A DNA stretch of 64,000 nucleotides from Raja brachyura. Its lineage: Eukaryota. The stretch spans positions 70,866,001 to 70,930,000 of the forward strand of contig OY740787.1 in the NCBI GenBank assembly GCA_963514005.1, given 5' to 3'. Shown here in pieces: positions 2,345 through 29,118 of this stretch. Positions within the stretch are counted from its first letter, which is position 1; each line of letters begins with the position of its first letter. The notes under the pieces were generated by a model that was given only the letters and a program-made list of their open reading frames with translations, ran no database searches and had not been told where the DNA came from. The translations under genes and the position numbers were made by a program.

Positions 2345-4066
2345 TAGGAAAGAACTGCAGATGCTAGTTTACACCAAAGATACATCTGTATGAAAGACAG
2401 ACACTTCAGATATTTGCTAATACCTCACCTACTGTTGTTCTTTAATGTAAGGACATCGAAAAGCCATTTCCCAAGTTTGTTTTGCCTGGTCCTTTTTTAG
2501 TTTTAATTTTAGATTCTATGGAGAATCTGTGGTGCCTCAGATTCCAGACATCTATAACAAGGTCAATGGTAGAAGAGCTTTATACCACAGGATCTTCCAA
2601 ATGGAGGTAGAAACATTGTGCTCATCCAGAAGGTGTACTGGAATTCCACTTTGCAAATGAGGCCCAGACAATCATTGCCCAGTGTACGAAGGGCAAGTTT
2701 AATAATCTCCACCTGCAAACCTCCTCACAACCACCTTCTTTCCTATAACAGTTATTATTCCAAAATGTTAAAACCTTTTTAGCGCAACACCCAGAAACTT
2801 GCTCGTGCTTATTCCAGATCCACCCTCCAACTACTGTATTGCTTTTACTTTGGATAATCTGAGCACCAACCAATCCTTCTGGAACTAGATACTCCTCGAC
2901 TTAAATGATAGGTGATTTACATAAACTCACACTTGCGTTAACCATTTTGTACTCAGTCCCTAGTTCAATCAAGGTAGTTTGCATTTCCACGACACCAAAT
3001 GATTACCTTACTCATGTTTTCAATCGGAAACATGCCAGCAATGGCGGTGGTGCTTACTCACAAGGCCGTGCTCAGCAGCAAGTGCCCCAACTCAAGCAAA
3101 GAATGGCAGCAGTGCTAACGCAGAAGGCTGCCCGCTGCAGGGAGTTCCCCGGATTCAGTCAGATGCGCTGAGTCAGTTAACACATTCAGTGAGTTATTTC
3201 GTTCAGTGGATGGGGATGGCGATTCCAACTTGCATAGTACAGATTTTAGGTAAGGGTTCATGGAACGTAACCCTTACACACGTCAGGAAGTGCCCATATA
3301 TTGTCTTGGAGTTTAAGCTTTTTTTAAAAAAACAAAATCTGTTCCTGGTACTTTCATAATACAGGCGAGATTTTATTTCCTGTCATCCTTTTCCTGAACA
3401 AGGTAACCCTGGTGGAAATTTGCATTAGTAGTTAGTAACGCAATCAATTAAGAGTGTACATACCATATTGAAATAAATACATGCATTCTACTCTAAGACC
3501 AGAGGGTCATCTTTTGCAGCATGCATGAATGCTCTTACATATCACTGGATTTGTAGTTGGATAAACTTCTTCTGGAGAACTGTACAAAAGGTTAAAAGTC
3601 AGAAGTGAGACATTGCCAGATAATTCGACACAGTAACATAAATAAGTATCACATGCAAAAAGAAAATAAGCACTGTTAGAAATGATTATACAATAAACCA
3701 ATGCAAAAACAATGCCAACATTCTGTTAATAAAGATCCATAAAAGGTTGTAATAGATAACCATGCATCGTTGCAGTGACAGTGCAAAAGACAATTGTTTT
3801 ATATTCGGGTGTTCAAAGATAATTCCTTGAATTAATTTTAAAATAATGTTCATGCCGTGATGCAACACAAATTAAAACATGCATTCTATCCTTAAATCCA
3901 TGCCAATAGTGAACATGTTCTGTCACAGTTTGATGATCCTCAATCTTAAATGGCAAGGTAACACATTCAGGTAACACATACTAGACTAAATTAATCTCCA
4001 CATAGCAGTAGTAATATTGGAAAATAAACAGAGCCACCGATTAGCCACTTTCATTGCAAATATTAC

Positions 4067-4218
4067 CTTTGCCAATTATTCCATATGCCAGTGAAGGTGG
4101 TATAATTAATTTTCTTTTCTCTCCTTCACACATATCAGCCATACCAATGTCTAATCCTTTTATTACTTGCCCCACACCAAGCAGAAACCACTTAGGATGA
4201 CCTTCATTGTCTTCACGA
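4067..4218 (-). CDS. FKBP7: FKBP7 exon 2
   Basis: [47 protein letters not shown]; AG/GT boundaries; 152 bp. Confidence 0.95.
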
Positions 4219-4899
4219 CTGGAAGGAAAAGAAAATATTTCTGATTAAAGATATCAATTTCAATAGATTAGAGTAGCAACATTTAAGTGAAAATGGTTTT
4301 ACAGTGAAAATGAAGCACTTGACCAATGTGTAAAATGAAAGCAGAATATTTTTTCCCATGTAGAATAAAAATTGAGATTGTTGGATATCAAAAGTTTATT
4401 CAAGTTGTTATTCACCCGCTGGCTAAAGAAATGCCTCCTCATTTTCATTCTAAAGGTACATCCTTTTACTCTGATAATTCTATATATTTTTTGTCATCAG
4501 AAGCAACTAATTTATTTCAAATCGTATGAATCATTCCTAGCCAAACAAGGTCTGAAATGATAAATGAAACAATTCATCAAACGGATTCAGTCATCAGCAA
4601 TGGCTATAGAGGTCGCTACCATTTATTTTACAACAGGAACCAATAGGAGAAAATGGAACTGGAATCATGCGAGCTAAAAAAAGAATTAACATGTAAATAC
4701 AGTAGTAAAGTAGGCAGGTGATACGAATTCCCAGTTGCTGGGAAGCTGGTATGATAGAAGCTCCTGCAATAGTTGTAGAAATTCTAAAGGAGGCAAGAGT
4801 GCCACCTGGTGTAGAAGCACAGAAAAATAAAATGCTAAAACCAAGACTTCAGAAATTGCACACGAGTCTACAGTGAAACGTAGAGAGATGGTGGAAATC

Positions 4900-4935
4900 C
4901 CTCCACCCGCTCAGCACCCACCCCTCCCTTCTCTA

Positions 4936-4966
<31 letters not shown>

Positions 4967-5285
4967 TCTACATTTCCCTCCTCACTTTCCTTTCTTATCA
5001 GAGTTCACAAATGGCACAATTCTGTCTTATTTACTTATCATCTCCCATCTTGGTTATTATCACCCTGCTCTCCCTCACCTTACACATCTGCAAATCAACC
5101 TCTCCACATGGATTCACCCATCATCTGCCAGCTCTTGCCCCATTCCTGCTAAGCTCTTTCTGCTATCTCCCCTTGACCCCATTCCAACTAAATAAGGGTC
5201 CCTACACAAAACGTCATCTGTCCATTTCCCTCCACAGATGTTGTCTGACCCGCATAGTTTCTCCAGCACTTTGTGTTTTGTTCAA
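4900..5285 (+). mobile_element. Decayed Penelope-like 3' tail with poly-C run
   Basis: Pyrimidine-rich tail ending aagggtc...aaacgtcatctgtccatttccctccacagatg...ctccagcactttgtg, shared with 16750-17150. Confidence 0.55.
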
Positions 5286-6553
5286 AAATCTAAAACCAGA
5301 TTAGTGGGATTAATTCAAAACCAGAGGATCAAGCATTATTATAGTCATTTAAAAGCCATATAAAATATTGACACAATGAGCAAAAGTGCAATAGGAACTT
5401 CAAGTAGTCACGTGTATAATACATGCATTGGTGATTGGTGTGCCCAACCAGACAAATATTTCCTTTTCAAAATAAAATGGAAAGAACAGAAAATATCAAT
5501 ATTTCTTTAATTCTGCATCAATGGTCAATTTCAGATCCCTTTGGAAGGTAGAATTTGCCTGATGTACGGTTTGTCACCAATTTGTTAAATAGCTGGCCAA
5601 TAGACAAACACCTTAAGCACAAGACAAGTATCTTTAAACATTTTGATACCGTGACTGCAAAGATAATATGGAAAAAATATAAATCTGGGATGATGCAAAA
5701 TGTGAACACAATTTAAGGGCAACAACACAAATGGGTTTTTACAAGGGGAAGGGTTTTTTAGATTAGCAAGTCTGCAAAGGTGAAAGGGTTCAGAACTAAG
5801 ATTTGAGGAGCAGGTTGAAAGGGTTTCGAGCTAAGATTTGAGGAGCTGATGAACAGGAACAGGACTTCTGCCAGATTACTGAGAAATGCCACTTTCAGGT
5901 AATAAAGACCCAGAAAAGAAGTTGGCAGTTCAACTATCATCAGTTTTGCAGGAAAAGGACATGGGGCCAGTGCTGTGTTTTATGGGCAGAATACATTTTC
6001 AGCAACCACGAAGAGAGACTGGAAAGGAACAAGAAAAATGTACACATTTGGGACAGGGCTGGGAGAAATACTATGTTTTGTCCTAGTACACAAAATAACC
6101 GGCAAATGGAAAGCTTTCAATCTGAGTGACTAGGATCTTCATGAGGTCCTTACACTGCAGTGAAAAAAAAATCATTGTTTCATACAATAATTGGCATAGT
6201 AAGAAAAAGCTAGTATCTATAAAGACTCCCAGGTCCGAAGCGTTAATTAACGGCCCCCCCACCCCCACAAAAAAAATGGTGCATGACCTTCTGAGTGTTT
6301 CCAACTTTTTCTGATTTTAGTTCAGACTCCCACCATTCTGATTTTGTTATCTATTCTTTGGAGACTTGGGTGCTTCACAATCAGTTTAGCGCACAACAAT
6401 AAGCATGTTTTCGTTATTTTACGTGGTAACGCATGAGAAATGGAATGGGAATGATCGCAGAGGGAGCAACGGACTTTGGTTTCTAAAGTAGGAGAGTTGC
6501 AGACGAAGCGAAGAACTTGAGCAAAACACAAAGGTGAGTGCTGGTGGGACTTA

Positions 6554-6821
6554 ATGCCCTGTCCCACTTAGGAAACCTGAACGGAATCCTCTGGAGTATT
6601 TGCGCCCCACACAAGGTTCCCGCAGGTTTTTGTCCTCCGGCAACCACCTTCAACTAGCATCGCAACCGGCTTGGACTAAAAAAATTACAGATTTTTAAAC
6701 CAGAAACCACTTTCGACCATTAGGGAGACTGACAAAATCCTCCGGGTACTGTACGTAAACCTTGGGTGGGGCGCAAAGTCTCTAGAGGTTTCTGTTCATT
6801 TCCTAAGTGGGACAGGGGCAT
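6554..6821. mobile_element. MITE with long inverted arms (Harbinger-like ends)
   Basis: atgccctgtcccacttaggaaa...tttcctaagtgggacaggggcat; imperfect inverted arms ~70 bp; TTA on left flank. Confidence 0.75.
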
Positions 6822-6844
6822 TTGCGGGTCAAATAGCATATATT

Positions 6845-7873
6845 TAGGTATGTTACAATACCTACCTTTAGCAGCGCTGCAGTTCTGCCGCTCCCCGTGT
6901 GCGCGGTTTTGGTGCCTTTCAGAGTTTAAAATGCCGTTTTAAAATGCAGGTTTAAAATGCCGTTTTTCTCTAGGCAGTCCAGGTCGATCCATGTCGGGCG
7001 ATTTCGTCGCTAAAGAGAAATCGCTCCGACATTTCATTCATAAAGGTATTTTTAAACTACACTAGATTATTTATTAACTAGAGTAGTTTAAAAGTCATCT
7101 TCTAAAGCGCTGAATGGTGACAGCGGAACAGACCTAAGGTAGGCGATAAAAGAAGCTACACAGTTTATTTTTACATAAAAACTTGGTTTTTAGGAAGGCT
7201 TTAATCACATTTTCATGTTGTGAAAAGGGGACAAAAAAATGTATGAACCGGCTGTATTTTTCATACTGACTTCACCGCAAACCGCAACGTTCTAATCCAC
7301 CGCATTCCACTAATGGCCATTAATTTACAGGCATTAAACATTAAATTCCGTCCATTTGGCCTAGAAATTCATGAAAATGAGATTTTAAAATTATGTTATA
7401 TTGTGGATTATTGTGTGAATGTTATTTGGACACTTAGGCAATTAAAAAAAAAAGTTTATCTTTTCTTAAGAAATGGATAGATGTTTAAATCTATTCATTG
7501 AATTTTGTAATTAGCTACAATTAGATAACTAACTAATTATATGCTTTAATTTCAGGTCATCCAAGTAAGATTGTTTCATATTTGTTTCAGAACGTTTCAA
7601 TCTACAATAACTGAAAATTTCATTGAGTTCTCTTAATTTTTAACAAAGTTATGGGCTTTTGACTGTTCTAGATCACAGCTTTTGAGTTATGTCAATTGAA
7701 AGGCAATGGGGAACAAGATGCTAATTTCCGAGTATGAAAATGGTCATAACTTTCTTAATACTGAAGATATGAAAGTGAATTAGGTCTCAATTTAAACTTA
7801 TTTTTTATGCTTTATCTGATGGGATAAATTGCAGACTTGATTTTTTAAATCTCAACATTTTGTAACATTGCTA
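6845..7873. mobile_element. Non-autonomous DNA transposon, copy 1 (~1.03 kb)
   Basis: Imperfect 14-bp TIRs taggtatgttacaa / ttgtaacattgcta; colinear with 27129-28150; no long ORF. Confidence 0.85.
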
Positions 7874-7900
7874 ATCTATGGATGGAGGGAGTGGACAAAC

Positions 7901-7928
7901 GACGTTTCGAGCCGGGACCCTTCTTCAG
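7901..7928 (-). ncRNA. Minimal hammerhead ribozyme-like core
   Basis: CUGAAGA-A-GGGUC-CC-GGCUC-GAAAC-GUC on minus strand; stem I poorly supported. Confidence 0.45.
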
Positions 7929-8250
7929 TCTTTGCTCAAGATTCCAGCACCTGCAGTTTATTGTGTGTCCGAACAGAAGAACTTACCCATATTGCAAAAG
8001 TCGGCAGTGAACTGGAGAAAGTCGGAAACTTTTCGCAAGTGCATCACTCGGACGACTTGGTGACCCGAGCGAGTGGAGCACAGGGGACGACGGAGTGTGT
8101 GAGCAGATCACCACCCACAGAGCAAAACGGTGCTGACAGATTCAAAGCGTCAATATAGAATGAAAATAATTCAAAAGAACACGCAAAACATCAAATGCAA
8201 AATAAATTTAAAAAAGCGGCGTTACAAAGTGCAAGTTAAAGGTAAGAGGT

Positions 8251-8347
8251 AGATACACAAAATGCTGGAGTAACTCAGCAGGTCAGGCAGGCAGCATCTC
8301 TGGTGCTGCCTGACCCGCCGAGTTACTCTAGCATTTTGTATATATCT
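8251..8347. repeat. Hairpin of two inverted Penelope-terminal-repeat fragments
   Basis: agatacacaaaatgctggagtaactcagcaggtcaggcag pairs with ctgcctgacccgccgagttactctagcattttgtatatatct. Confidence 0.8.
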
Positions 8348-8399
8348 TCGGTTTAACCCAGCATCTGCAGATCCTTCCCACACCAAAGGTAAAAGGTAC

Positions 8400-8602
8400 C
8401 TGCAATAAATCTGCGAGCCGTCCTCGGCGAGGTAGCCATCGTAGTGAGCATTGAGCGCGTCTCCTCTCCTGCTCTTCCGATGGCAGTCGTCCGGCCTGTA
8501 CACAACCTCTATCTTCACTTCTTCTTTGGTGTCGGCGTCAACCTGATTAAAGACGGCAGAACAAGCCAACAAAAAGAGGAGTAAGGCGGCAGGACGGTTC
8601 AT
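8400..8602 (-). CDS. FKBP7: FKBP7 exon 1 (signal peptide and start of PPIase domain)
   Basis: MNRPAALLLFLLACSAVF...VKIEVVYRPDDCHRKSRRGDALNAHYDGYLAEDGSQIYC; donor AG|GTACC; synteny with PLEKHA3 and TTN. Confidence 0.93.
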
Positions 8603-8780
8603 TGTGGATAGACGAGGCTGTGCTGAAGCTGCTCCGGCATCGACTGGCAGCGAGCGGCCCAACTGCCACGTCTCCGTGCCCCGCCTGCCTGGGCCCGCCG
8701 TCGCCCCTGACAACGGCAGGGTGGGCCATCCTCCCTATTGGTTACTATCCCTGTCAATCCATCGGCCTGTCGCTCCCGGG
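8603..8780 (-). promoter_or_regulatory. FKBP7 5' UTR / proximal promoter (GC-rich)
   Basis: CpG-rich; TGCCACGT at 8664-8671; CCAAT on minus strand near 8737-8741. Confidence 0.55.
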
Positions 8781-8989
8781 AAACAAGAGCATGCAGAATT
8801 GTGTGAGAAGTGTTCAAGAGTGCGTGAGTCTGCAACAACCGCAGATGCTGGTTTATACAGAGGATAGACACAAAAAGCTGGAGTAATTCGGCATCTCTGG
8901 AGAGAAGGAATGGAGTCTAGATCCTTCATGAGTGTTTGTGTTGTCATATGTCCCAGATAGCATTATGGAAATTCTTACTTGTAGCAACA

Positions 8990-9170
8990 CGTGGATATTT
9001 TAAAGGCAGAAATAGATAGATTTTTGATTATTACAGGTGTCAGAGGTTTATGGGGAGGAGGCAGGAGAATGGGGTTAGGAGGGAGAGATAGATCAGCCTT
9101 GGTTGAATGAATGGCGGGGTAGACTTGATGGGCCGAATGGCCTAATTCTACTCCTATTCCTTATGACATT
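8990..9170 (+). mobile_element. CR1/HER1-like LINE 3' tail
   Basis: aaggcagaaatagatagatttttg...gatgggccgaatggcctaattct, similar to 24195-24310. Confidence 0.7.
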
Positions 9171-11682: not shown

Positions 11683-12400
11683 GTAACATTAAATACAAGC
11701 AGGATAAAAACATACATAAAGTAAATTCAAAGCTACCTGCTGTAACTTTATTTGATGAACTTATATTAATAATTGAGCAATAAGCAAAGTGGTGGAGGAG
11801 TCATCGAGTCAGGCAGCATTTATGGAAGAAAGTGGACAGATGACATATTGGTTCAGGACTCTTCTTCATACTCGTATAGTCATAGAGTCATACGCCGTGG
11901 AAACAAGCTCTTGGGGCCAATTTGCCCACGCGCCTCATCTTCATTAGTTTCACCTGCCTGCTTTTGGCCCATATCCATCCAAACCTGTCCAATCCATGTA
12001 CCTACCCAAATATTTTTTAAATGTTGTGATACTCCAGACAGTTTTAAGAAGAGTTGCAACCTAAGACGTTGTCTGTCCACTTCCCTCCACAGATGCTGCC
12101 TAGCATGCTGAGTTCCTCCAGCACTTTACTTGTTGCTCAAGAAAGTAAATACAATTCTTAACAACCCTGTTGGTAAACAGTAAAAAATATTAATTGCACT
12201 CTAACTGTAAAATAATTAATTTATAAATTATACATGGTTTGCAAAATATAACAAATACATTGTCAGCCTAATACTGGTGTTGGTCTATGTCAGATTATTC
12301 GGCGGGTCTTGCTCATAATTAACTATGTCGACGAATTTTGGTGTATAAATACGTTTCACTATTTCATTCGTTCATATTGTGTATTATTTTAATTCTGCAG

Positions 12401-12537
12401 AAATCAATGAGACCATTGAATCTCTCAGAACTAAGATGTCCGAACTCCGGTTGTATTGTGACTTGCTAATGCAACAAGTTCATACAATACACGAGTCTGT
12501 TAAACAGGATCAGCCAGGTTTGACGCCACCTGCTGAG
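12401..12537 (+). CDS. PLEKHA3: PLEKHA3 exon 4
   Basis: [30 protein letters not shown]...PPAE; AG/GT. Confidence 0.95.
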
Positions 12538-12799
12538 GTATGGTATCAGAATATATATATAGAATATATGTATTTGTATGTATTTATTATTATTTATAGC
12601 TAGTATCTGATGGTTAGAAGATCCTAAATACAAATTAAAACGTGTGTGCAGTCTGGCAATTCTCTCTGCTTTAACTAGACTGAGTGACTTATAAAAATGC
12701 ATTGAAATTACAATGGTACCAGACTATCTCTTGCACCCAAGAAAATTGTGTTCATTCACCCAATGCCAATATTCCTATGTTCGTCCATCCAATTTAATC

Positions 12800-13125
12800 A
12801 TAGTCATAGTGTGGAAACAGGCCCACACTGGCCAGCAATGTCCCAGCTACACTAGTCCCACCTGCCTGAACTTGGTCCATATCCCTCCAAACCTGTCCTA
12901 TCCATGTACCTGTCCAACTGTTTCTTAAATGATGGGATAGTCCCAGCCTCAACTACCTCCTCTGGTAGCTTGTTCCATATACCCGCCACCCATTGAGTGA
13001 AAAAGTTACCCTTCGGATTCCTATTAAATCTTTTCCCCTTTACCTGAACCTATGTCCTCGATTCCCCTACTCTTGGCAAGAGACTGTGCAAGAGACCCGT
13101 TCTATTCCTCTCATGATTTTGTACA
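12800..13125 (-). mobile_element. CR1-like LINE 3' fragment
   Basis: tggaaacaggccc...ccagcctcaactacctcctctgg; reverse complement resembles 32690-32990. Confidence 0.7.
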
Positions 13126-13418
13126 CTGAGTAACGACATTGTTAAGATTTTTGGTAACCTCTGTGTAACATGGAAAAGTGTAGACTGATCTCTGTTTAGC
13201 TGAGTATGATATTTTTTTCTGGCTAATTGTTCTTTTATGTATTATACCTTTTGGTACTAATTAATTTTCCAAAATGAAGTAGTGTTGACTCATATTTGTT
13301 AATTTACTGGCTTGGAACCTGTAGCTATCTAAGGGGTGGTTCTTTTAATCTGCTAGTATTTTGAGAAATTCATTAATCCCAATTGTGTATCTAAAATGAA
13401 TGTATTTTTGTTTCTTAG

Positions 13419-13583
13419 AATATGAATGAAGCCTCTTCTTTGCTCAGTGCCACGTGTAATACCTTCATTACAACTCTTGAAGAGTGTATGAAAATAGCCA
13501 ATGCCAAGTTTAAGCCAGAAATGTTCCAGTTTACTCACTCCGATCCACTTGTCTCTCCTGTATCACCATCACCAGTTCAGATG
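13419..13583 (+). CDS. PLEKHA3: PLEKHA3 exon 5
   Basis: [37 protein letters not shown]...SPVQM; donor after 13583 or 13589. Confidence 0.92.
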
Positions 13584-13779
13584 GTTCGGGTATGGTATTA
13601 TTAAGAGGAACAAATATACATTTATTCCTCTATATGTTAATGTTTCTGCAATTTTTTTGCTGCTATTATTTTCTTGTGTAATGTTTAATTGTCATTTTGT
13701 TCCCTCTTGATACAAGATGAATTGTGATGCAAGTTTAATTTAGATGTTTTGTAAGTTGGTAACTTTTTCAATATTGCAG

Positions 13780-13823
13780 ATGAAACGATCAATTAGTCAT
13801 CCTGGTACCATTCTTTATGATGG
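13780..13823 (+). CDS. PLEKHA3: PLEKHA3 exon 6
   Basis: MKRSISHPGTILYD-G; CAG acceptor, GG|GTAAG donor; 44 bp. Confidence 0.9.
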
Positions 13824-14685
13824 GTAAGAGAAAGGAGTTTTGTTGTTGGTTATTAATACAAATTATATTGGTAATTGCCTGGAACGTGATAAAAAATATT
13901 TGTGCCAGAAGCAGATGGTGCTTTTGCAAACATGGAAAGGCTGGACAAGCATACAGTTAAGATGAGAAAAGGGAAATATGCTAACAAATTTGGATGAGGA
14001 GAGGCTAAAAGAGTCTATAGCTCAAACTGCCATGGACAAGTTGGACCCAATGGCCTGTTTCAGCACCATATATTCCCTGTAATTATTTAATGATGAGATC
14101 ATTTGATTACATAATTATCCTGCCCAGGTATTCATGTTGCTCTGGGGATATGAAAGGAGATGTCTGGGCATTTAGAGGATTGAGGATGTTGTTGTTAGGG
14201 TAGGAATCGGTGGCGGTGGTGGTAATTAGGTAGATGTTTAAGAACACAAAACCTTTCCTGGCATGGATATATGGATAATTGGTAAATCTCAAAAGGGTTG
14301 TGTAAAAGAAGAAAGAAAGTGCAAGATTTATCTGGCTTAACATTTTGATCAGTATTGTCACAACTTTGTACAAGTAAACTTGCTTTTGAATGTACTGGTG
14401 ATTGTCATTTCTCATAGTATTTAATTATTCAGCATGACTGCATAATAGCATAGTATTAGTTAATGCCAGTATATTGCCTTCCTTCACCTGTGAAGAAAAT
14501 GAATACTGTGATAATGCTATAAATGTTAATACTAAATTCGAATCAAATTAATCCATCTTATTCACGTAACTTCTGGTTTGCGTTTTACAATTATTTGGCT
14601 ATCAGAGCACTGTCTTTTTAGTACCTTACATCTTGATTTGTGTCTGATCTTATTCTTGGTTAAGTTTAAATTTTGCATTTAGCAG

Positions 14686-14810
14686 GAAACTAGACACTCC
14701 TCACCAAAAGGAAATGCTTATTGCAACATTACGGCCTAAAGTGCACAGGAGAATACGGACGTATTCAGATACTGAATCATACAACGATGGTGCTCTGGAT
14801 GACCCAGAAA
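14686..14810 (+). CDS. PLEKHA3: PLEKHA3 exon 7
   Basis: ...HRRIRTYSDTESYNDGALDDPE; TAGCAG tandem acceptor (start 14683 or 14686); donor A|GTAAGC. Confidence 0.88.
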
Positions 14811-15059
14811 GTAAGCATTGAAATAGATTCTGCCGATACATGTGTGTAGTTGCAAAAATGGATTTGATGTCATTCTTAGTACATAAAAAAATTATGAATG
14901 AAAATTTGAGGCCCAATGTAAAACAATATTTCTCTTCACCCTCTCCTGCCACTACTGATTTGTTTTGATACCCATTTTAGATGTATTTTGCCTTTATGAA
15001 GTGCTTTGGGACATTTGTCTACATTATAGTTATCAATAGATTTATGAGCTTTGTAATTT

Positions 15060-15344
15060 AGTTTAGTTTATTATTGTCACATGCACTGAGGTACAGTGAA
15101 AAGCTTGTTGTTGCATGCTAGCCAGTCAGCAAAAAGACTACACATGATTACATTCAAACTGTCCATCATGTACAGATACAGGACGAAGGGAATAACGTTT
15201 AATGCAAGATAAAGTACGATTAAAGATAGTCCGGTCTCTAATGCGGTTGTTGGTTGGTCAGGACTGCACTCTATTTGATGATAGGATGGTACAGTTGACT
15301 GATAACAGCATGCAAGAAACTGTCCCTGAATCTGGAGGTGTGCA
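15060..15344 (-). mobile_element. Rex1/Babar-like LINE 3' end (continues at 16245-16512)
   Basis: (tttag) tail + tttattattgtcac...aagaaactgtccctgaatctggaggtgtgc. Confidence 0.65.
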
Positions 15345-16240
15345 CCTCCACTCGCCACATCTTCCCATCTCCCCCACTGTCTGCCTTCCGCAAAGACCGC
15401 TCCCTCCGCAACTCCCTTGTCAATTCTTCCCTTCCCTCCCGCTCCACCCCTTCCCCGGGCACTTTCCCTTGCAACCGCAAGAGATGCTACACTTGTCCCT
15501 TCACCTCCCCCCATCCACTCCTTTCAGGGACCCAAGCAGTCATTCCAAGTCCGACAGAGGTTCACCTGCACCTCCTCCAACCTCATCTACTGCATCCGTT
15601 GCTCCAGATGCCAGCTGATCTACATCGGTGAGACCAAGCGGAGGCTGGGCGATCGTTTCGCCGAACACCTACGCTCGGTCCGCAATAACCAACCCCCCCT
15701 CCCGGTGGCTCAGCACTTCAACTTCCCCTCCCATTCCGTATCCGACCTCTCGGTCCTGGGCCTCCTCCACGGCCAGAGTGAGCAACACCGCAAGTTGGAG
15801 GAACAGCACCTCATATTCCGCTTGGGGAGTCTGCATCCTCTGGGCTTAAACATTGAATTTTCTCAATTCTGTTAACCCTTGCTGTCTCCTCCCCCTCCCC
15901 ACCTCTCCCTTAGCCTTCGGGCCCTAACATTCCTTCTCCATCTCCCCCCCCACCCCACCCAAGTCGCACTAGCTTCTCATTTTCACACTACAAACAGCTT
16001 ACAATGGGCTGTTTCCTTTATCTTCAATACTTTTTTGCATATCTTTCATTCATTGTTCTTTATCTCTCCACATCACTGTCTATATCTCCCGTTTCCCTGA
16101 TACCCTGACCAGTCTGAAGATGGGTCTCGACCCGAAACGTCGCCTGTCTCCTTCGCTCCTTAGATGCTGCTGCACCCGCTGAGTTTCTCTAGCTTTTTGT
16201 GTAACCCTCGATTCTCCAGCATCTGCAGTTCCTTCTTTAA
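15345..16240 (+). mobile_element. Penelope-like retroelement 3' portion: GIY-YIG endonuclease and terminal repeat
   Basis: ORF FTCTSSNLIYCIRCSRCQLIYIGETKRRLGDRFAEH...HFN...LEEQHLIFRLGSLHPLGLN (LIY...YIG); upstream Cys motif PCNRKRCYTC; hammerhead motif in tail. Confidence 0.9.
16114..16141 (+). ncRNA. Minimal type I hammerhead ribozyme core
   Basis: CUGAAGA-U-GGGUC-UC-GACCC-GAAAC-GUC; possible stem I GACCAGU/GCCUGUC with 2x2 mismatch. Confidence 0.65.
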
Positions 16241-16244
16241 CATT

Positions 16245-16512
16245 TTCATAATTATTATCACTTGCCTGATGGGAGAGGGGAGGAGAGGGGGTGACCGGGC
16301 TGATATCCGTCCGTGATTATTCTGGTGCCCTTGCCAAGGCAGCGTGAAGTGTAGGGAGGTTGCTTTGTGTGAAGGTCTGGGCTACTTTCACAACTCGGCA
16401 ATTTCCTGCGATCTTGGATGAAGCCATTCTCAACCCATATTGTGATGCATCCTGATAAAATGCTTTCAACGGCACATCTGTAGAAGCTGGTGAGAGTTGT
16501 TGGGGACATGCT
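16245..16512 (-). mobile_element. Rex1/Babar-like LINE ORF2 C-terminal fragment
   Basis: MSPTTLTSFYRCAVESILSGCIT...HPLSSPLPSG, homologous to 28568-28855. Confidence 0.8.
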
Positions 16513-16749
16513 GAAAGTTCTATGCCTAAATATGTGAGTGGAACAATGTAAATGTTACTACCCAGATTGCTGATTGGGATAGTTGCTATGAACCACCATG
16601 GCACCTACACTAAAGAAGAAGGATAATGACTTGGGCTATTTTGGGAGCACCACAGTGGCACATCAAAATGCTCTGGCATTTATTTCCCACCTCTGGTGCT
16701 GTCTGTGGAATATGCAAAGTTACTTGAAAAGCTGAAGTGCCCTTTTCTG

Positions 16750-17150
16750 TGATGTACAATTCTATCATGTAATGCACCCATTTCTGCCTGTCCCCTCTGT
16801 TTCACCCCCTTCCTCCCCACCCCAATCCCCTTCCACATATTATTTCCACTAGCCTTTTATTTCACACTTCTATCCTTATCTGGACTCGCACTTGTTAACT
16901 TTTCATCTCTGGCCTGTCCAAATCTACCATTCAAAACTCTCCTCTCACCTGTATCCACACATCACTTGCCAGACTTTGTCCCACCCCTCTATTCCAGCTT
17001 TCTTCGTCCCTCCAATAATTCGTCTGAAGAAGGGTCAGACCCGAAACGTCGCCTAGCAGTATTTTCCGGAGATGCTACCTGACTAGCTGAGTTACTCCAG
17101 CACTTTGTCTTATTATTTTAAACAAGCATCTGCAATCCCATGTGTCTCTG
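16750..17150 (+). mobile_element. Penelope-like terminal-repeat fragment
   Basis: Pyrimidine-rich tail + hammerhead motif + gatgctacctgactagctgagttactccagca. Confidence 0.7.
17024..17050 (+). ncRNA. Minimal hammerhead ribozyme core
   Basis: CUGAAGA-A-GGGUCAGACCC-GAAAC-GUC. Confidence 0.55.
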
Positions 17151-17330
17151 TGATTCTTATGTTTGTGTCAAATGTATATCCTTGACTTTAAACATTAAGT
17201 TACATTTAAATTTAAACGTTAAGTTGAGATCTTTAAAATCTGTGGACTGAAACAGTTTTTATGAGTAAAAATATATATATATATATATTGGTCCTAAAAT
17301 TGTAAATGAATTGTTATGATTCTTACAGAG

Positions 17331-17464
17331 ATTGCTTAAATTTCTCGAAATTCTTTATTGACTGCAATGGTGAATTTCCTCCAATGACCATTCCGGAAGA
17401 AAATGCTGCAATATCAAAGAAGAAAACCGGGACAGAGGGTCCTTTTGTTGCACTTTCAAGTTGA
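17331..17464 (+). CDS. PLEKHA3: PLEKHA3 exon 8 (terminal; acceptor uncertain, 17329 or 17331)
   Basis: ...NGEFPPMTIPEENAAISKKKTGTEGPFVALSS* resembles recalled human C-terminus NGDLASATIPEE...SFSS*. Confidence 0.75.
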
Positions 17465-18248
17465 ATATCTGAATTTAAATGGATTTAAAATATGATCACT
17501 CTGCTAATATTGCTATGCAATTACTGCTAGCATTTAGATATTGCAACAAGAGGGAAATGGTTTCCCAGTTAAATGGTTTTCCCTGCACTTTACAATACAA
17601 CATCAAGTCGGAAAACCTGAGAAGCTTACCCAACCTTATTTCTATTATATATTTTCAGTAAGTTACAACTGTAGTTTCTACAGTATTGTGTAATAAACCC
17701 ACTGAGGATCAGTGATCATCTGATTTCAGAACTTTGCCATACAGAGCAATGGTACCATTGAGTTAATAACAACTGTGAAGCTTCAGTGGATAAATAAGGA
17801 CGCAACACATGACTAAAGACAGCATTGCCGGAGTGTGTACTTTGGGGACTGCTGGCCAGGAGAGACTTGATAGAAGGAGTTAAGTCCTTGGGGCTGTACA
17901 AATTCACTGTATGTACCTGTGTATCCTTGGACAATTAGCATTCAGGAGGAATTGCAGTTGGATGTTGTTTCTATTTTCACCTTTTATTTGACTTTGTAGC
18001 TAGTATATGTTGAATGAAACCTGTTATGTTTATGAACACTGAGTACTGTTGTAGGATGAGGTTTGGATTGAGCTTCATTTTTTTTAGTAGCAGACAATTA
18101 GTACTGGTTATACCAGAACTCATAGGTGTAGAAGCAGTTTCTGAAACAAAGTTAAAACTATTGTGCTCTGCATTACCTTTTTGAAAGAGAAATGAGTGGA
18201 TTCTATCCACTTAAATATTAAAGGAATGAAAAGGCGTATTTTCTATTC

Positions 18249-18268
18249 AATAAAAACACATCAATAAA
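18249..18268 (+). terminator. Candidate PLEKHA3 polyadenylation signals
   Basis: AATAAA at 18249-18254 and 18263-18268 (another at 17692-17697); usage unknown. Confidence 0.35.
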
Positions 18269-21200
18269 ATACAATAGTGACCCAGGTATAATTGTAACTG
18301 GCAACTATAGAAAATAAATTACTTTTTTATATGACCATCTTCATTTGAGGTAAAGGGAAAAGTTTTTAATTTGAGTTGAAACCTTCAATGGTGTAATTGG
18401 CTAATATGGCAAGCAAAAGTTATTTGGTTTAAATAGTTAAAAATAAACATTTTTGTAACTCTCTTAAACCAGCTATTTCCAGTCTATTTGCAGAAATTTA
18501 ACCTGTTGTGCAATGGAAGAGATTGCAGAGCTCTGGTGTTTCCTTATCACATGCCATATTTAAGCAGAGGTCTGAAATAAAGCCAGAATAGTGATTTGTA
18601 ACTCACACAAATTTGTTACCTGGATTTAAATTAGATGACCGGAAAAAGGATAATTTGTCCCACTTTTTCCTAAATGTTACGCATTTATATAATAATTCAA
18701 TATCAATCATCAGTTAAAATCTTTTCAATCCCAATTACTTTTGTTGCTCTTATTTACACGCTGGGTATGCTGTCAATGCAATTTATTTAGCAATCTGTTT
18801 CTTCCAATATAAACAACATGATTACAACAAAGGGTGGAATTATATTACTTTAACACATTTAGTAGAAACAGTTGTGGTGTTAAACTTTGTTTTACTGCGT
18901 ATTAAACTTAACAACATTCCAGTGTTTTTAGACTCCATTCTCCAAAATGCCATTGTTTTAAATGAAAAATATTTAAGTTTGCGATGTATGCGTGTTTTTC
19001 TAATAATAGACAATGTGTTGTGATGATTTCATAATTCCTAAAAACGACATCAGACATTTTAGTGTTCTAAACATAGATTCATTGATGTGCAGGGTATACA
19101 CAGCACTTTAATGTCCAAAAACCCAAGGCCTAGTCTAAGAGGAGAACATCTAAATTTTCGTCCCCCAAACCAGCCTTTAAAGATAGAATAGTATTAAGCA
19201 AATAAAAGTGTCAACATACCAGTAAATAATGGAATTAATGATACCAAGTGAGAAAGAGTAATTTAATGCTATTAACTATGCTATCAATTTGTTCTTTTGT
19301 GAATATTAAATGCTGTGAATATTAAGAGTTTGCATGCAGAATTTGTAAAATGGACAGATTTATATCATGCATTTTTGTTTTCAACAAGGCCATAGCTTCA
19401 GGCATTCAAGCTTAAAATTCATGATGTTCTAGTTTAGCTGATAACTGGAAGCCTCCAGTTTGTGAACTGCCTGGTCTCTGCTGGAGCACCAATAACAACT
19501 TTGAACTTTGGTACCCTGGGTCTCAGGAGAGGAAAATCCAACCAGAATTTCAATTACCATCTCTTTTCAACTTTGCCATCCTCTTAGGGTATGTTTTCAG
19601 ATGTCTGTGAAGATGGAATTATGTGACTTCCCCATTCCAGTCAACCGCCACACCTTTTTTTGTATCCATTGAGGTTTGTTAATATTGCTCTGGCGTTTTG
19701 CATGAATAACAGGCCCCTTGGATAAAAATTGAATCCAGAGCTGAGCAGCACAAATTAAAGCTGGAAAGGAGGGAAGACAATTTCCCACTTAATTGTGTCT
19801 TAAACATGTAGCACTAAGTTTTATTAGTGATTTTCTTCCGCTGTTATAAATTACAATGAAATAAAATTGTTCACTTTTCAAATTTTTATGCTTTTCAGTA
19901 ATTAACTATAATAGTTTAAATGTTAATACATTCACATCTAGAGAATATAATTGCTTTTAGAGCAGATATTTTGAAGTATTATAATCCAAATTGGGTATTG
20001 TGGAGCCATTAAGATATCCGCATGATTGATTTATAATGTCATGTATAAAATGTGAATTTTGCTCTCGGTCAATGTAAATAACTATTGGGGAAAGGACTGC
20101 TTTGATTACTGTTTTCAGGATGTCCTTCAGGATTTGCTGGTTCGATGTGTGAAATGGCCTGCTTTTTCTCGATGACGGCTTTTATAAAGAAATTAAATTG
20201 TTCTGAAAATATGTTGATCTAGATTAATATTTAAATATTAGTGAGAAAATAACAGAGAACTACACTCCCATCAGAACCTAATAGATCAAGTTAAGTCAAA
20301 TTTATTGTCATGCACGAGTACGTTAGGGTCAGGACAAGAACATTTGGATTGCAGCAACATCGCAGGCAGATGGACTCAGACAAACACACAAAAAAAATTG
20401 CAAATATTTCTAAAAATGACAATGCAAAAAAAACTGCACAATGTTAGATCTTTGCTTTTAATTGTGAATATTATGAAACTAATGTAACATTGGAAGTACA
20501 CCAACCTGCTATCATGGCATTCAGTTATGTTAATTTTGATTACACCAACAATTCAAATCTAATAGAATCTGAAGAGAATATTGAATTTGCAGGATGATGG
20601 AAGTAAGACATAGAGATCCAGTAATGGAATGGATGAAATTTGAGCTGTGATTAAGCTTGCATTATTTTGGTAGATTAGAAATGTTGGTGTACTGATTTTG
20701 CTCATCATCTTTTCAGTTGCTTTTTACAAAGTTACTGAAATAACATGTAATTCCTACTTATTTCATTTTACATTTCCTCCTGTTGTATAACTTTAGAACG
20801 TTTTTTCTCATACTGATATTTACCACGCATAGAACAGTTTGTATTATTGAATGTCACTTATAGTATGATTTTGTTAGAAAGATATGACTAACAAGTTTTC
20901 TAAAAGCCAGATTCTCTTTTTGAGGCTCTTTCATGATGTCTTTGAGTAGTTGTGTTGAAATTACCTCCCCAAGCCATTATTGAATAATTGCCCTGCTGAA
21001 TGAATTCTAGTCATAAATTACTTAATCTTTACAAGTAAACTTTTAATCTACAGAGTTTTTTGAAAGACCCTTTCCCATTTTCTGAGCTTGTGGAAAATTA
21101 CATATGTAATAATACTGAGCCAAATTAACCCCTTCAAAATTTTAGTATTGTTCTGGCCTAGGTTTGAATTTATATGTTGATTCTAATTAAATCATGATGT

Positions 21201-21444
21201 GGCAATGAGTGGAGTTTAACAAATGTAGAAAATATCATAAATCCTTCTCTTCCATTCTGAATTACATGGTATTATACAATATCTGCTTTGTGGTAAAATG
21301 GTTAAAACTTTCAACCAAACACTGCTTACGTATTGCTTTTTGAGAAGTTATATTCAACCAAAGCAGCACAACCCCAGCCTGGGAACCGTTTTGTCTGCCC
21401 AAACCATTTTCTTAAGTCTGAGAAAATACAAGATAGTTATAAAT

Positions 21445-22425
21445 CTGAGATAGACAATAGGTGCAGGAGTAGGCCACTGGCTGATCATCCCCAATCAGTA
21501 CCCCGTTCCTGCCTTCTCCGCTATTTTTAAGAGCCCTATCTAGCTCTCTCTTGAAAGTATCCAGATAACCTGCCTCCACCGCCCTCGGAGGCAGAGAATT
21601 CCATAGACTGACCACTCTCGAAGAGAAAAAGTGTTACCTCATCTCCGTTCTAAATGGCTTACTCCTTATTCTTAAAAGTGTGGCCCCTGGTTCTGGACTC
21701 CCCCAACATCGGGAAGATGTTTCCTGCCTCTAATATGTCCAAGCCCTTAACAATCTTATATGTTTCAATGAGATCCCCTCTCATTCTTCTAAACTTCAGA
21801 GTGTACAAGCCCAGCTGCTCCATTCTCTCAGCATATGACAGTCCCGCCATCCCGGGAATTAACCTTGGAAACCTACGCTGCACTCCCTCAATAGCAAGAA
21901 TGTCCTTCCTCAAATTAGGGGACCAAAACTGCACACGATACTCCAGGTGTGGTCTCACTAGGGCTCTGTGCAACTGCAGAAGGACCTCTTTGCTCCTATA
22001 TTCGATTCCTCTTGTTATAAAGGCCATGCCATTTACTTTGAAGAAGCATCTGAAAAATCTGCCATCTGAAGAAGGGTTTTGGCCCGAAACGTTGCCTATC
22101 TCCTTCGCTCCATAGATGCTGCTGCACCCGCTGAGTTTCTCCAGCATTTTGTGTACCCATGCCATTTGCTTTCTTCACTGCCGCTGTACCTGCATGGTTA
22201 CTTTCATAGACTGATGTACAAGGACCCCCAGATCCCGTTGTACTTCCCTTTTTCCCAACTTGACGCCATTTAGATAGTAATCTGCCGTCCTGTTTTTGCT
22301 ACCAAAGTGGATAACCTCACATTTATCCGCATTAAACTTCATCTGCCCACTCCCCCAACCTGTCCAAGTCACCTTGCATTCTCATAGCATCCTCCTCACA
22401 GTTCACACTGCCACCCAGCTTTGCT
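21445..22425 (-). mobile_element. CR1/HER1-like LINE 3' part, interrupted by a Penelope terminal-repeat fragment (~22035-22158)
   Basis: ORFs QMKFNADKCEVIHFG, ALVRPHLEYRVQFWSP, RRMRGDLIETYKI, VSLWNSLP. Confidence 0.9.
22066..22093 (+). ncRNA. Hammerhead ribozyme-like core
   Basis: CUGAAGA-A-GGGUU-UU-GGCCC-GAAAC-GUU. Confidence 0.5.
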
Positions 22426-22769: not shown

Positions 22770-22971
22770 AGAAAGAACTTCAGATGCTGGAAAAATCGAA
22801 GGCAGATAAAAAAGCTGGAGAAACTCAGCCGGTGAGGCAGCATCTATGGAGCGAAGGAATAGGTGATGTTTCGGGTCGAGACCCTTCATCAGACTGAAAC
22901 GAAACGTCGCCTATTCCTTTGCACCATTGATGCTGCCTCACCCGCAGAGTTTCTCCAGCGTTTTTGTCTAC
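22770..22971. mobile_element. Inverted-repeat Penelope terminal-repeat element with hammerhead core (minus, 22865-22892)
   Basis: Arms ~22802-22873 and ~22900-22971 are reverse complements; CUGAUGA-A-GGGUC-UC-GACCC-GAAAC-AUC on minus strand. Confidence 0.75.
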
Positions 22972-23639
22972 ATTCAGATGAATTTGGTAATTGTTTCTTT
23001 TATAGCTAAAGGCAAAAAAACTTGCATTTTATGTATGTATGAAGGAATATTTTAATAGAATAGTAGTTTTAATTGTCCACTACACTGAACCATATAATTA
23101 AAAACTTTCTTTTGTTGCCTTCTTGTTACTTGCCTTGTCCTAATAGTTCTCCTGGTCACTGATGGGAGTTTGAATGGAATAATAATGGCATGCTAGGTGT
23201 GAGGGCATGTCTGGAACCTGGAGGTCATCGTTTCAAAAAGCCAGTTAGAACAGAGATGAGATAAAACTACTCACTCAGTATCGAATCATTGGAATTTTCA
23301 ACCCAAGGGTCTTCGTCAAAGTATATTCAAGGCAAAGCACAATAGATTTTTATATTTCAAGGAATTCAAGCAATTTAGTGAATTCAAGCATTTCCAGTTT
23401 CACAGGAAAGTTGCTAAAGGGAAATTTCAACCATGACTGGGAATGTAGACATAAGGAGCTAAATGTCCTTTTGCTTCAATTTCTTGTGCTCCATGATATA
23501 AGAAACAGCAGTGTGATGCCAGTGACTGTTTCCTCTGCAACTCTGTGGTTAATTTGCCCCCCTCCCACCCACACTACCACATTCCTAGGTACTTTCCCTG
23601 CAAGCACATTTGTAACACCTTTCATAGTAATTCAGTGCT

Positions 23640-24794: not shown

Positions 24795-27700
24795 ACTATT
24801 AGATTGGATTCGTGTTACCCATCCTGACTGAATCTTAACATCTGGTGTTTTGTCAGACTGCTTTAGCGATCATTCTGCTATCTTCTGTGTGTGGAAGATT
24901 AAACCTTCCCATCTTCCTCCTAGATTTATTTGTGTCAGACAATTTAGAAAATTTAATTATGATAATTATATGCATGACCTGATTGCAATAAACTGGGACA
25001 GGTTTCAACTTATACCAACTGTTGAGGATGCCTGGAACTATTTATACACTGAAGTCACAAGAGTTATTGATAAGCATGCCCCCTGGAGAGAAATAAAAGT
25101 CAAGGGAAAACATTTACCATGGATTAGTGGTGATTTGGTCAACCTTTTTAATGAGCGGGATAAAGTCTGGAAGACTTTCAGGGAAACAAAGGACCCTGCT
25201 GATTGGGAAAAATATAGGTCCTTAAGGAATCAGTGTACGACAAGAACACGTAATGCTAAATCAAGTCATTTTAAAAAACATCTTTCTGAAGATATGCATA
25301 ATCCAAAAAAGTTCTGGAAAAGACTAAATAATGTTCTTAATAAATCAAATCAAAATATCAGCACTCAGATTTGGGTCAATAATGACATAATTCAGGACCC
25401 TGCTGTTATATCCAATGCTTTCAACCATCACTTCCCCACTGTATGTAGCTCTACTGTATTTGACTCATCTATTATATGTGACTTTCCAGCTACCTCTACA
25501 TGTAGAAGCTCTTTTTCTTTTCAAAAAATAAAACCTGTTGACGTTCAACATGCTATTAATGAATTAAAGGATGATAGTGGATCTGGACCAGATGGTATTG
25601 AGACTAAATTCATTAAGTTAGGAGCTAATATTCTAACGTACCCATTGTGTGACCTGTTTAATTTGTCCTTCTCAACTTGTACCCTCCCTCTCGCATGGAA
25701 GTGTGCCAATGTTACTCCACTGCATAAGGGAGGTGACCCACAGGATATTAACAATTACCGCCCCATCTCAATTATCAACTCGGTGGCTAAAATCCTCGAG
25801 AAACTAGTGTTCATCCAGCTATCATATTACGTCTCAACTTTCAACATTCTATCTCCATGCCAGGCTGGGTTCAGACCTAATCACTCCACAACTACAGCTC
25901 TGTTAAAACTCACCAGCGATGTGTTTTCTGCTTCTGAGGATGGTAAACTCACCGGTGCCATCTTTCTTGATTTAACCAAGGCCTTTGATGTTGTTGACCA
26001 CTACCTACTGCTTGATAAACTTTACTCAATTGGTCTTTCTCAAAACAATCTACTGTGGTTTAACTCGTACCTTCATAACAAACGCCAATGTGTTACCTTT
26101 AATGGAAGTCAATCTAATTCCTTAATTATTGAGAAGGGGGTCCCGCAAGGTTCGTCTTTGGGACCACTCCTTTTCTCTATTTTCATATACGACCTCCCTA
26201 ATATTTGTTCTGACTGTCAAACACAACTATATGCTGATGATGCAGTGCTATATACATCTAGTACTAACAAGTCCAAAATTGAAAGATCCCTTCAATGAGA
26301 TCTTACTTCTGTTCAGAAATAGCTATTATTTAACAAATTAATTTTAAATAAAAATAAATCATGCAGTATGTTATTTGGTACCAGACAAGGCCTTGGTAAT
26401 TCTGCAGATCTGACTATATCATTTAATGAAGGATCACCATTAGAACAAGTATTGGACTTCAAATATCTTGGAGTTTGGCTCAACCCATTTACACAGCATA
26501 TTGAGACGATTACTAAAAAACTCAGCTGTAATCTAGTTGTTCTTTACCGCCATATAAATTGTTTCACCTTTCAGATGAGAAAAATAATTGTCTCTCAACT
26601 ACTACTACCAACACTGGATTATGCTGATATTGTCTATCAGAATACATTTGATACACATCTTCAACCCCTCAATGTAGTTTATAATAGTCTCTGCAGATTT
26701 ATTTTAAGGTGTCCATATCTAACACACCACTGTTCTATGTACGAAACTCTAAACTGGTTATCCTCCCACGCTCGAAGATGCTACCACTGGTTCCAGTTCA
26801 TCTTTAAATGCATCCATCTCAATTACCCTTCTTATTTAAAACAAGACCTATTACTATACACACCCTCATATTCACTAAGACATATTCAGCAACCCTTCTT
26901 TTTCATTCCAAGAATTAACAAAGAAATTGGGAGACGTGCATTTAAATTCAAAGCTCCTTCTGACTGGAACACTCTGCCTAGTACCATAAGAACTAATAGC
27001 TCATTTTGTCTATTTAAAAATACACTTTTACCCTTACTTATAAAACCATGTACCTGTTTCTAGTATTAGAGTCTTCGAGCTCCTTTATCTAGCTTGCTCT
27101 GTGTGTGATCATTTGTCATAGCTATTGTTAGGTATGTTACAAAACTTACCTTGAGCAGCGCTGCAGTTCTGCCGCTCCCCGACTTTGGCGCCTTTCAGAG
27201 GTGGGCGGGCTTAAAGTGCCGTTTTTCTTCAGACTGGTCAAATCGATCATGTCGGGCGATTTCGTTGCGGAAGAAAAATCGCTCCGACATTTCATTAATG
27301 AAGATATTTTTAAATTACGCTAGATTATTTATTATCTAGAGTAATTTAAAAATCACCTTCAAAAGCCGTGAGCGCCGATAACGGGAAGGATTTTGTGTAG
27401 GGGAGAAAAAAAGGTACACAGTTTATTTTTATATTAAAAGTTGGTTTTTATGGAGGCTTTAATAATATTTTCATGTTGCGAAATGGGGTCCAAAAAAAAT
27501 GTATGAACCGGCTGTATTTTTCATACTGACTTCACCGCAAACCGCAACGTTCCAATCCACCGCATTCCACTAAAACCCACTCGCTAGTTGATTTAAATGG
27601 CCATTAATTTACAGGCATTAAACACTAAATTACTTCCATTTGGCCCAGAAATTCATGAAAATGAGATTTAAAAATTATGTTATATTGTGGATTATTGGGT

Positions 27701-28411
27701 GAATGTTATTTGGACACTTAGGCAATTAAAAAAAAGTTTATCTTTTCTTAAGAAATGGATAGATGTTTAGATCTACTCATTGAATTTTGTAATTAGCTAC
27801 AATTAGATAACTAATTATATGCTTTAATTTCAGGTCATCCAAGTAAGATTGTTTCATATTTGTTTCAGAATATTTCAATCTACAATAACTGAAAATGTCA
27901 TTGAGTTCTCTTAATTTTTAACAAAGTTATGGGCTTTTGACTGTTCTAGATCACAGCTTTTGAGTTAAGTCAATTGAAAGGCAATGGGGAACAAGATGCT
28001 AATTTCCGAGTATGAAAATGGTCATAACTTTCTTAATACTGAAGATATGAAAGTGAATTAGGTGTCAAATTAAACTTATTTTTATGCTTTATCTTATGGC
28101 ATAAATTGCAGACTTGATTTTTTAAATCTCAAAATGTTGTAACATTGCTACTAATGTATATGCATGGCCAGTACACTTATGTATTATTGTATTGCATAGT
28201 GTAACAAGGTCTTATTTTGTATTATGTCACAATACTATGAAATAATATGAGGATGGAGGGGTTTTGGGATTGGTGTGTGGGTAGGTGGGTCAATGAGAGC
28301 CTCTATGTATGTTATGTCTTGTGCTGTATGTTCTATGTTGGACCCCCTCGAAAACGAGATGACTATCCATCTCAAGGGGTTATCCTGAATAAATTTAAAT
28401 AAATAAATAAA
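24795..28411 (+). mobile_element. L2/CR1-group LINE, 5'-truncated, ORF2 nearly intact; 3' UTR split by a DNA transposon
   Basis: Endonuclease end SDH; RT motifs NYRPIS, FLDLTKAFD, GVPQGSSLGP, LYADD; 24850-27063 is one frame with stops at 26296 and 26320; 3' stem-loop and (TAAA)n tail at 28340-28411. Confidence 0.9.
27129..28150. mobile_element. Non-autonomous DNA transposon, copy 2
   Basis: Same TIRs as 6845-7873; flanks ctattgt / ctaatgt. Confidence 0.88.
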
Positions 28412-28431
28412 TATCAACGGGTCAGTGGTTT

Positions 28432-29118
28432 ATATCAACGGGTCGATGGTTGAAAGGGTCAAGAGCTTTAAATCTCTGGAAATCTTTCCTGGTCCGAGAA
28501 CACTGATGCAATTATTAAGAAAGCACATCAGCGCCTCTACTTCATGAGAAGATGACAGAGAGTCGGTTTGTCAAGGAGGACTCTCTCTAACTTCTTCAGG
28601 TGCACAGTAGAGAGCATGCTGACTGGTTGCATCGCGGCTTGGTTCGGTAACTTGAGCGCCTTGGAGAGGAAAAGACTACAAAAAGTAATAAACACTGCCC
28701 AGTCCATCATCGGCTCTGACCTTCCTTCCATCGAGGGGATCTACCGCAGTCGCTGGCTCAAAAAGGCTGGCAGTATCATGAAGGACCCACACCATCCTGG
28801 CCACACACTCATCTCCCCGCTACCTTCAGGTAGAAGGTACATTCCAGAGGCCTGAAGATTGCAACAACAAGGTTCAGGAATAGCTACTTCTGCACCACCA
28901 TCAGGCTATTAAACTTGGCTCGGCCAAAACTCTGAACATTAACAGCCCATTATCTGTTTATTTGAACTTTATCAGTTTATTTATTCATGTGTGTATATAT
29001 TTATGCAATGGTATATGGACACACTGATCTGTTCTGTAGTCATGCCTACTATGTTCTGTTGTGCTGAAGCAAAGCAAGAATTTAATTGTCCTATTCGAGA
29101 CACACGACAATAAACTTG
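28432..29118 (+). mobile_element. Rex1/Babar-like LINE 3' part
   Basis: LSNFFRCTVESMLTGCIAAWFG...KDPHHPGHTLISPLPSGRRY; ends gacaataaacttgaa. Confidence 0.85.

Follow-up and report, generated by a model that had tools for sequence, protein, structure and literature searches.

Can two hammerhead motifs that share an intron cut the transcript of their host gene? The question is raised by a 64-kb stretch of DNA, referred to below as the window, in which two sequences resembling the minimal hammerhead ribozymes of Penelope-like elements (PLEs) follow each other on the + strand at a distance of 910 nt, inside what a preliminary description took to be intron 7 of PLEKHA3. According to that description, the two copies could act together as a double hammerhead and cut the intron. 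Our analysis points elsewhere. We consider it highly probable that the motifs are cores left behind by two separate PLE insertions, and that they are idle passengers of the gene, decaying neutrally and being removed by splicing.

The genomic setting held up. Exon 3 matches the PH domain of the solved PLEKHA3 structure on the + strand (E = 1.5e-25), and eight exons of the gene are readable in the window. The junction 14810/17329 was found in a contig of another organism (X1, the run type of which is RNA by guess). Therefore, intron 7 extends over positions 14811-17328 and both motifs lie on its sense strand (Table 1). Judging from a stop codon in exon 8, this would be the last intron of the gene. 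The start of exon 8 has peculiarities of its own: from the junction, the PLEKHA3 frame continues for three codons before it meets TAA (17337-17339), a longer frame in a different phase stays open to TGA 17463-17465, and in contigs of two other organisms an additional A follows 17365, which would put the downstream part into the frame of the junction. Either this lineage may have a shorter PLEKHA3 C-terminus, or splicing may use a second acceptor at 17331, 2 nt further downstream. Adjoining the gene on the - strand (~25000-42000 and beyond) are long coding-like stretches resembling immunoglobulin and fibronectin repeats, presumably those of titin.

Table 1. Features of the PLEKHA3 intron 7 region (positions in the window)
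Feature	Position	Strand	Sequence or basis
PLEKHA3 exon 7	14683..14810	+	exon reading and spliced-contig junction
PLEKHA3 intron 7 (GT..AG), holding both hammerhead motifs	14811..17328	+	sequence and junction
PLEKHA3 exon 8, start (extends further 3')	17329..17560	+	spliced-contig junction
Older repeat, left part, interrupted by the element of copy 1	15077..15344	-	joints in other copies of the repeat
Older repeat, right part	16241..16580	-	same interrupted repeat as 15077..15344
Young 5'-truncated PLE insertion, probably Neptune-type, with copy 1	15345..16240	+	alignments of relatives
Open frame with GIY-YIG endonuclease fragment	15330..15875	+	Pfam PF01541
Copy 1 minimal hammerhead	16114..16141	+	CUGAAGA-U-GGGUC-UC-GACCC-GAAA-CG-UC
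Older PLE-terminus remnant with copy 2	16805..17150 (approximate boundaries)	+	relatives 72-79% identical
Copy 2 minimal hammerhead	17024..17050	+	CUGAAGA-A-GGGU-CAG-ACCC-GAAA-CG-UC

Both motifs are intact hammerhead cores in sense orientation, just as had been claimed. The catalytic boxes (CUGANGA, GAAA and UH, with C17) are complete in each. Copy 1 consists of C3-A9 (16114-16120), an extra U (16121) in place of the A of the family, stem II (16122-16125 with 16130-16133), G12-A14 (16134-16136), ACGU (16137-16140) and C17 (16141), after which the scissile bond is predicted. In copy 2 the corresponding parts are C3-A9 (17024-17030), an extra A (17031), stem II (17032-17035 with 17039-17042, closing a 3-nt loop), GAA (17043-17045), ACGU (17046-17049) and C17 (17050). 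The stem II strands GGGU and ACCC are complementary by sequence in both copies, although folding models do not favour their pairing. The extra base after A9, which had been noted, is present in both copies. It is no oddity but a family trait (412 of the 433 copies sampled have A), and an unpaired base between positions 9 and 10.1 is a described conserved feature of the minimal hammerheads of PLEs (PMC4209133). Stem I is as weak as had been noted, with 2 bp (U-G and G-C) in both copies, and its third position is an A-C mismatch in 283 of 377 family copies. The extension of stem I ascribed to copy 1, in turn, depends on a private G at 16146, where the family has A, and we rejected the longer stem as a functional trait.

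A descriptor of the core and stem II has four matches in the 64 kb (both copies, 22066 on the + strand and 7928 on the - strand), while 60 first-order Markov simulations gave a mean of 0.017 matches and a maximum of 1. The motif is therefore not a chance occurrence but a repeat, and a family profile finds 17 matches in the window. A scan with hammerhead models, which the preliminary description had proposed, was negative as far as Rfam is concerned: no hammerhead family is among the 4 weak matches obtained for 12000-22000 at E up to 10. Further motifs of the family lie at 22066-22093 (+) and 7901-7928 (-), both with intact cores, and at 22865-22892 (-), 22881-22977 (+) and 29220-29247 (+). The stretch 22865-22977 resembles a head-to-head inverted motif pair; such pairs, with one base between them at the core start, were also seen elsewhere in the genome (G000:C1:272160-272216, 1338397-1338453 and 1866042-1866098). 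Directly upstream of the motif at 22066 is a fragment (21662-22060, -) that resembles a reverse transcriptase, presumably of a CR1-type LINE; a Pfam search gave no match for it.

The elements that carry the two copies are different. Copy 1 belongs to an insertion that contains the end of an ORF (CX4CxxC linker and GIY-YIG, frameshifted), a UTR, the hammerhead and a tail of ~100 nt, and that has CA on both flanks. The GIY-YIG frame reported ahead of copy 1 is present, scoring 22.3 bits against PF01541 (E = 1.7e-4), just below the cut-off of 22.6. It is a fragment with neither a start codon nor a reverse transcriptase (RT), and the linker cysteines are in another frame (15299-15631). The insertion interrupts an older antisense repeat, other copies of which join 15342 to 16261; Pfam has no match for this repeat, which by its translated motif we presume to be a LINE fragment. 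All 39 other scored relatives of the element of copy 1 are 94-97% identical to it, and there are 5,112 candidates in the 2.7 Gb genome. Its longer relatives are 5'-truncated at many different points. Two long ones (L036 and L037) have RT motifs, the CX4CxxC linker and GIY-YIG, and the Pfam scores of the relatives (RVT_1, E = 7e-6; GIY-YIG, E = 1e-4) are both just below the curated cut-offs. From the linker motif and the host group, the element is likely of the Neptune type. The 3' ends of this family fall into two classes ~32 nt apart (L002-L020).

The remnant with copy 2 has no such close relatives, even the best being as distant as Table 1 indicates, and we place it in a PLE terminal repeat by the homology of its motif and tail alone. 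Between the two copies, 92 of 145 columns are identical over the motif and tail and 128 of 249 upstream. Going by these comparisons, the copies are two separate insertions that differ in subfamily and age. That they might be the two pseudo-LTRs of one element is ruled out by the differing subfamily, age and identity.

Pairs of this kind are to be expected in this genome. A single 28-letter form of the motif has 53,052 exact occurrences genome-wide (control 0), and a general intact-core pattern has 144,984 (control 520), which corresponds to one per 18.6 kb; the totals are approximate, because some places listed with the fixed pattern are missing from the gapped search. By a Poisson estimate, chance alone should place same-strand neighbours within 910 nt of each other in ~3,500 cases. 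A sample of 1.55 Mb contains 883 profile matches, 118 intact-pattern matches and 6 same-strand pairs within 910 nt, 5 of them formed by the family and one involving a non-family match; two of the 6 are sense-oriented within introns. With independent insertions, ~3,500 chance pairs expected and 5 family pairs in 1.55 Mb, there is no support for the PLEKHA3 pair being special or a likely intron-cutting double hammerhead.

Nor do the copies bear a clear mark of selection. Among 433 copies with motif and tail, conservation is 0.91-0.95 at the non-CpG core positions and 0.89-0.96 at the invariant tail positions; G12, which lies within a CpG, has changed to A in 100 of them. Since the profile used here included the core, the sample is biased toward core conservation, and the absence of an excess is conservative. 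In other words, the core decays like neutral DNA across the sampled copies. Stem covariation across genomic copies, the absence of which the preliminary description had named as part of a refutation, is not clearly seen, an essentially negative outcome. In 410 copies, neither stem II nor stem I departs from the pair counts expected under independence. At pair 10.2-11.2, the genome-wide counts are 91,448 for G-C, 3,075 for A-C, 2,245 for G-U and 119 for A-U, so that the pair-breaking A-C is commoner than the pair-keeping G-U. The compensated A-U shows a small, 1.6-fold excess (119 observed and 75.5 expected), for which differences in copy age could account. Subfamilies differ by one-sided stem changes.

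A strand comparison in introns leads to a similar picture. It covered 1.40 Mb in 14 intervals between same-strand Laminin G exons (Laminin_G_2 matches, independent of annotation), with stretch overlaps of 2.0 and 2.2 kb removed; the 62 antisense pattern matches include one non-family match (L129). Intronic profile matches number 428 in sense and 400 in antisense orientation, those with an intact core 86 and 84, and fully intact motifs 28 and 40, the last difference not being significant (p = 0.18, CI 0.29-0.54). Strong depletion of the sense strand is thus excluded, and a weak trend toward modest depletion remains. Several observations count against the passenger reading, among them the A-U excess: the trend of 28 versus 40 goes in the direction predicted by harmful sense cutting, and both PLEKHA3 cores are fully intact, even that of the old copy 2. 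By the full intactness test, both PLEKHA3 copies are intact, compared with only 68 of 403 intragenic full-coverage copies. Moreover, a lack of selection is no proof that nothing is cut: an intron severed by a slow hammerhead can nevertheless undergo splicing (PMC2995048, citing two other studies).

An alternative is that the two copies pair as a hybrid or double hammerhead, perhaps with the aid of PLE protein, intron 7 being severed at a low rate that splicing tolerates and with no function for the host. On paper, an ACGU/ACGU stem III and stems I of U-G and G-C can form between the copies in both directions. As reported for PLE minimal hammerheads, the monomer is inactive and dimers are weakly active in vitro (PMC4209133), and the hammerhead of an anole PLE cuts only with the protein of the element, no RNA-seq reads ending at the site (PMC11167929). 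The young relatives of copy 1 suggest recent activity of the family, and the non-significant sense depletion of fully intact copies would also fit. In folding models, the double hammerhead is unfavourable. In a fold of 16060-17110, the inter-copy stem III has a probability of 0.00, and the complete double structure is 27.6 kcal/mol less favourable than the ensemble. A single hybrid, with the core of copy 1 and the cleavage strand of copy 2, costs 12.5 kcal/mol, which is less than two other natural pairs require (21.0 and 21.8 kcal/mol) and speaks against the passenger reading. Stem I duplexes across the copies extend poorly (-2.6 and +0.5 kcal/mol). The predicted probability of stem II is 0.00-0.03 in copy 1, where it is mostly out-competed, and 0.05-0.89 in copy 2, depending on the flank. 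These predictions carry little weight, as the models include neither tertiary contacts nor Mg2+ nor an active hammerhead as a positive control. Nevertheless, with stems this weak and 900 nt of unrelated sequence between the copies, assembly before splicing is unlikely: in the host pre-mRNA, a 4-bp inter-copy stem III together with 2-bp stems I would rarely form in time. Taking into account also the lack of copy-end clustering at the cut site (see below), we regard low-rate cutting by the pair as improbable.

In the models, the purine-rich core of copy 1 pairs with its pyrimidine-rich tail at the expense of stem II, as happens in most family copies. The private changes of copy 1 can be dismissed as the cause, because family-typical copies fold alike. 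We also rejected a built-in 'off' hairpin in which the core would pair with the post-cut sequence. It is predicted in all five subfamilies, but composition is a sufficient explanation: when the downstream 25 nt are shuffled, 23-37% of the shuffled sequences suppress stem II equally.

That the host has co-opted the pair to regulate the processing or output of PLEKHA3 seems to us extremely unlikely. It is true that both cores are intact and sense-oriented in the intron preceding the last exon, and that part of the element of copy 2 was found in contigs of two other organisms. But copy 1 is young, ~3-5% off its family, and has private changes in the motif region; such pairs are common; there is no stable stem III or long stem I here; and the contig of a related organism, which may not carry both copies, shows normal splicing of intron 7. 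HH9 and HH10, the conserved intronic hammerheads of amniotes, too lie on the sense strand of a host intron, but they are single-copy, conserved and fast, whereas the PLEKHA3 motifs are high-copy, decaying and minimal and have no Rfam match.

The ends of family copies tell something about the RNA from which they were made. Copies continue across the scissile bond into a tail of 65 or 100 nt, and hence their RNA templates were uncut there; the family would have been reverse-transcribed from RNA left intact at the hammerhead site. We looked at the 5' ends of copies for a footprint left by cleaved templates and found none. Only 5 of 883 copies start at the cut site, compared with 3-8 at neighbouring positions, and 1 of 489 does so in an anchored test, which means no clustering in a sample that would not resolve a rare class of cleaved templates. 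The anchored set has another property: 117 of its 489 copies start 1-5 nt before C3.

This last observation bears on the suggestion that the family motif is no longer a ribozyme and is kept for promoter activity, protein binding or as a boundary of reverse transcription. The 2-bp stem I with its frequent A-C third position agrees with such a role, as does the prediction that stem II is favoured in none of five subfamily majority sequences (0.00-0.20), and hammerhead mutants of the anole element insert in vitro without loss (PMC11167929). Yet in every one of the five subfamilies the majority sequence has all catalytic positions, the extra base and the palindrome, and the motif matches a published PLE hammerhead alignment in which stems covary between species (PMC4209133). 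On balance, we find a non-ribozyme role doubtful, though deserving attention. As a reading of the family as a whole, it does not conflict with the two PLEKHA3 copies being idle passengers.

Even if the motifs are passengers here, the hammerhead in element RNA would, by analogy with other PLEs, probably serve a slow processing that is assisted by dimerization or protein. The likeness to the PLE minimal hammerheads described by Cervera and De la Pena in 2014 (PMC4209133) is extensive. It includes the catalytic boxes, the unpaired base, G10.1-C11.1, the palindromic 15.2-16.2 with no loop 3, the position in PLE terminal repeats and the prevalence of single truncated copies. The earlier identification of the two copies as minimal type I hammerheads of PLE termini with a palindromic ACGU stem III agrees with that source. 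The Acropora digitifera row shares this layout, with a 4-bp stem II starting with GGG; a Neptune element of this species is tabulated in the same paper. Stem I is shorter here (2 bp versus 3-6 bp in the published rows, apart from D. virilis, which also has 2 bp), and intact cores are far more numerous (~145,000 versus 4,000-9,000 in coelacanth and Xenopus, where another descriptor was used). The two supplement files of PMC4209133 that were searched contain no shark or skate row, and none of the three papers that a literature search gave for Penelope in shark, skate or elasmobranch contains 'ribozyme'.

With the Neptune clade as characterized in PMC8557442, the family shares an RT followed by a C-terminal GIY-YIG, a CX2-5CxxC linker and 5' truncation, and the optional 30-40 bp tail of the clade is reminiscent of the two 3' end classes. 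Unlike Neptune, the element of copy 1 is a frameshifted fragment, and as Nematis also has a (reduced) linker, the assignment here follows from the motif and the host group (PMC8557442). PAc, a Poseidon element of Anolis carolinensis, resembles the family in its PLE hammerhead, in being copied from uncut RNA and in having two 3' classes, two RT start sites being reported for it; it is a member of a different clade, however, and its cleavage was measured, whereas ours is predicted from sequence (PMC11167929). The double hammerheads of tandem repeats and of non-LTR retrozymes (PMC4209133 and 10.64898/2026.07.22.740005) likewise have a weak palindromic stem III that two copies could complete. There, though, a single unit is repeated within the RNA of one element to give both partners, while those in PLEKHA3 are unrelated insertions of two subfamilies. 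Retrozymes have been reported in one chondrichthyan, and 8 of 9 tested Xenopus dimer elements showed no cutting (10.64898/2026.07.22.740005).

What, then, do these motifs mean? They are an example of cartilaginous-fish type, present in very many copies, of a motif class reported in 2014. With an intact core every 18.6 kb, dozens of sense copies would be expected in a 1-Mb gene, and so many of them with no clear strand depletion fit near-inactivity outside the ribonucleoprotein of the element itself. It is tempting to speculate that neighbouring unrelated PLE insertions form hybrids, so that the genome would hold thousands of slow, accidental intron-cutting ribozymes, the PLEKHA3 pair included, switched on where the element protein is expressed and under weak negative selection in sense orientation. 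We think this highly improbable. If true, hybrid cutting would mean that introns are broken throughout the genome, and it would allow the role of PLE hammerheads in vivo to be tested directly.

Finally, the 3' half of the hammerhead (from G12) and the tail also occur as 66-nt tandem arrays, with units 97-99% alike. Their exact junctions number 32,478 genome-wide (control 0), none being in the 64-kb window. The 17 arrays in the sample are all on C46 (L118-L132, e.g. L121:4053-4647 and L129:5701-6289), and others are found in the first ~9 Mb of G000:C1. Many arrays are preceded by the core strand, some begin mid-unit, and the first or last units are often from other subfamilies. The unit carries the ACGU and cut site required from a partner and lacks the catalytic strand; for a cis hybrid hammerhead at the arrays, the folding model gives a cost of 11-13 kcal/mol (37 C). 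The arrays could be a minisatellite spread by conversion, the product of an array-bearing master element, or the outcome of rolling-circle copying of a ribozyme-excised 66-nt circle.
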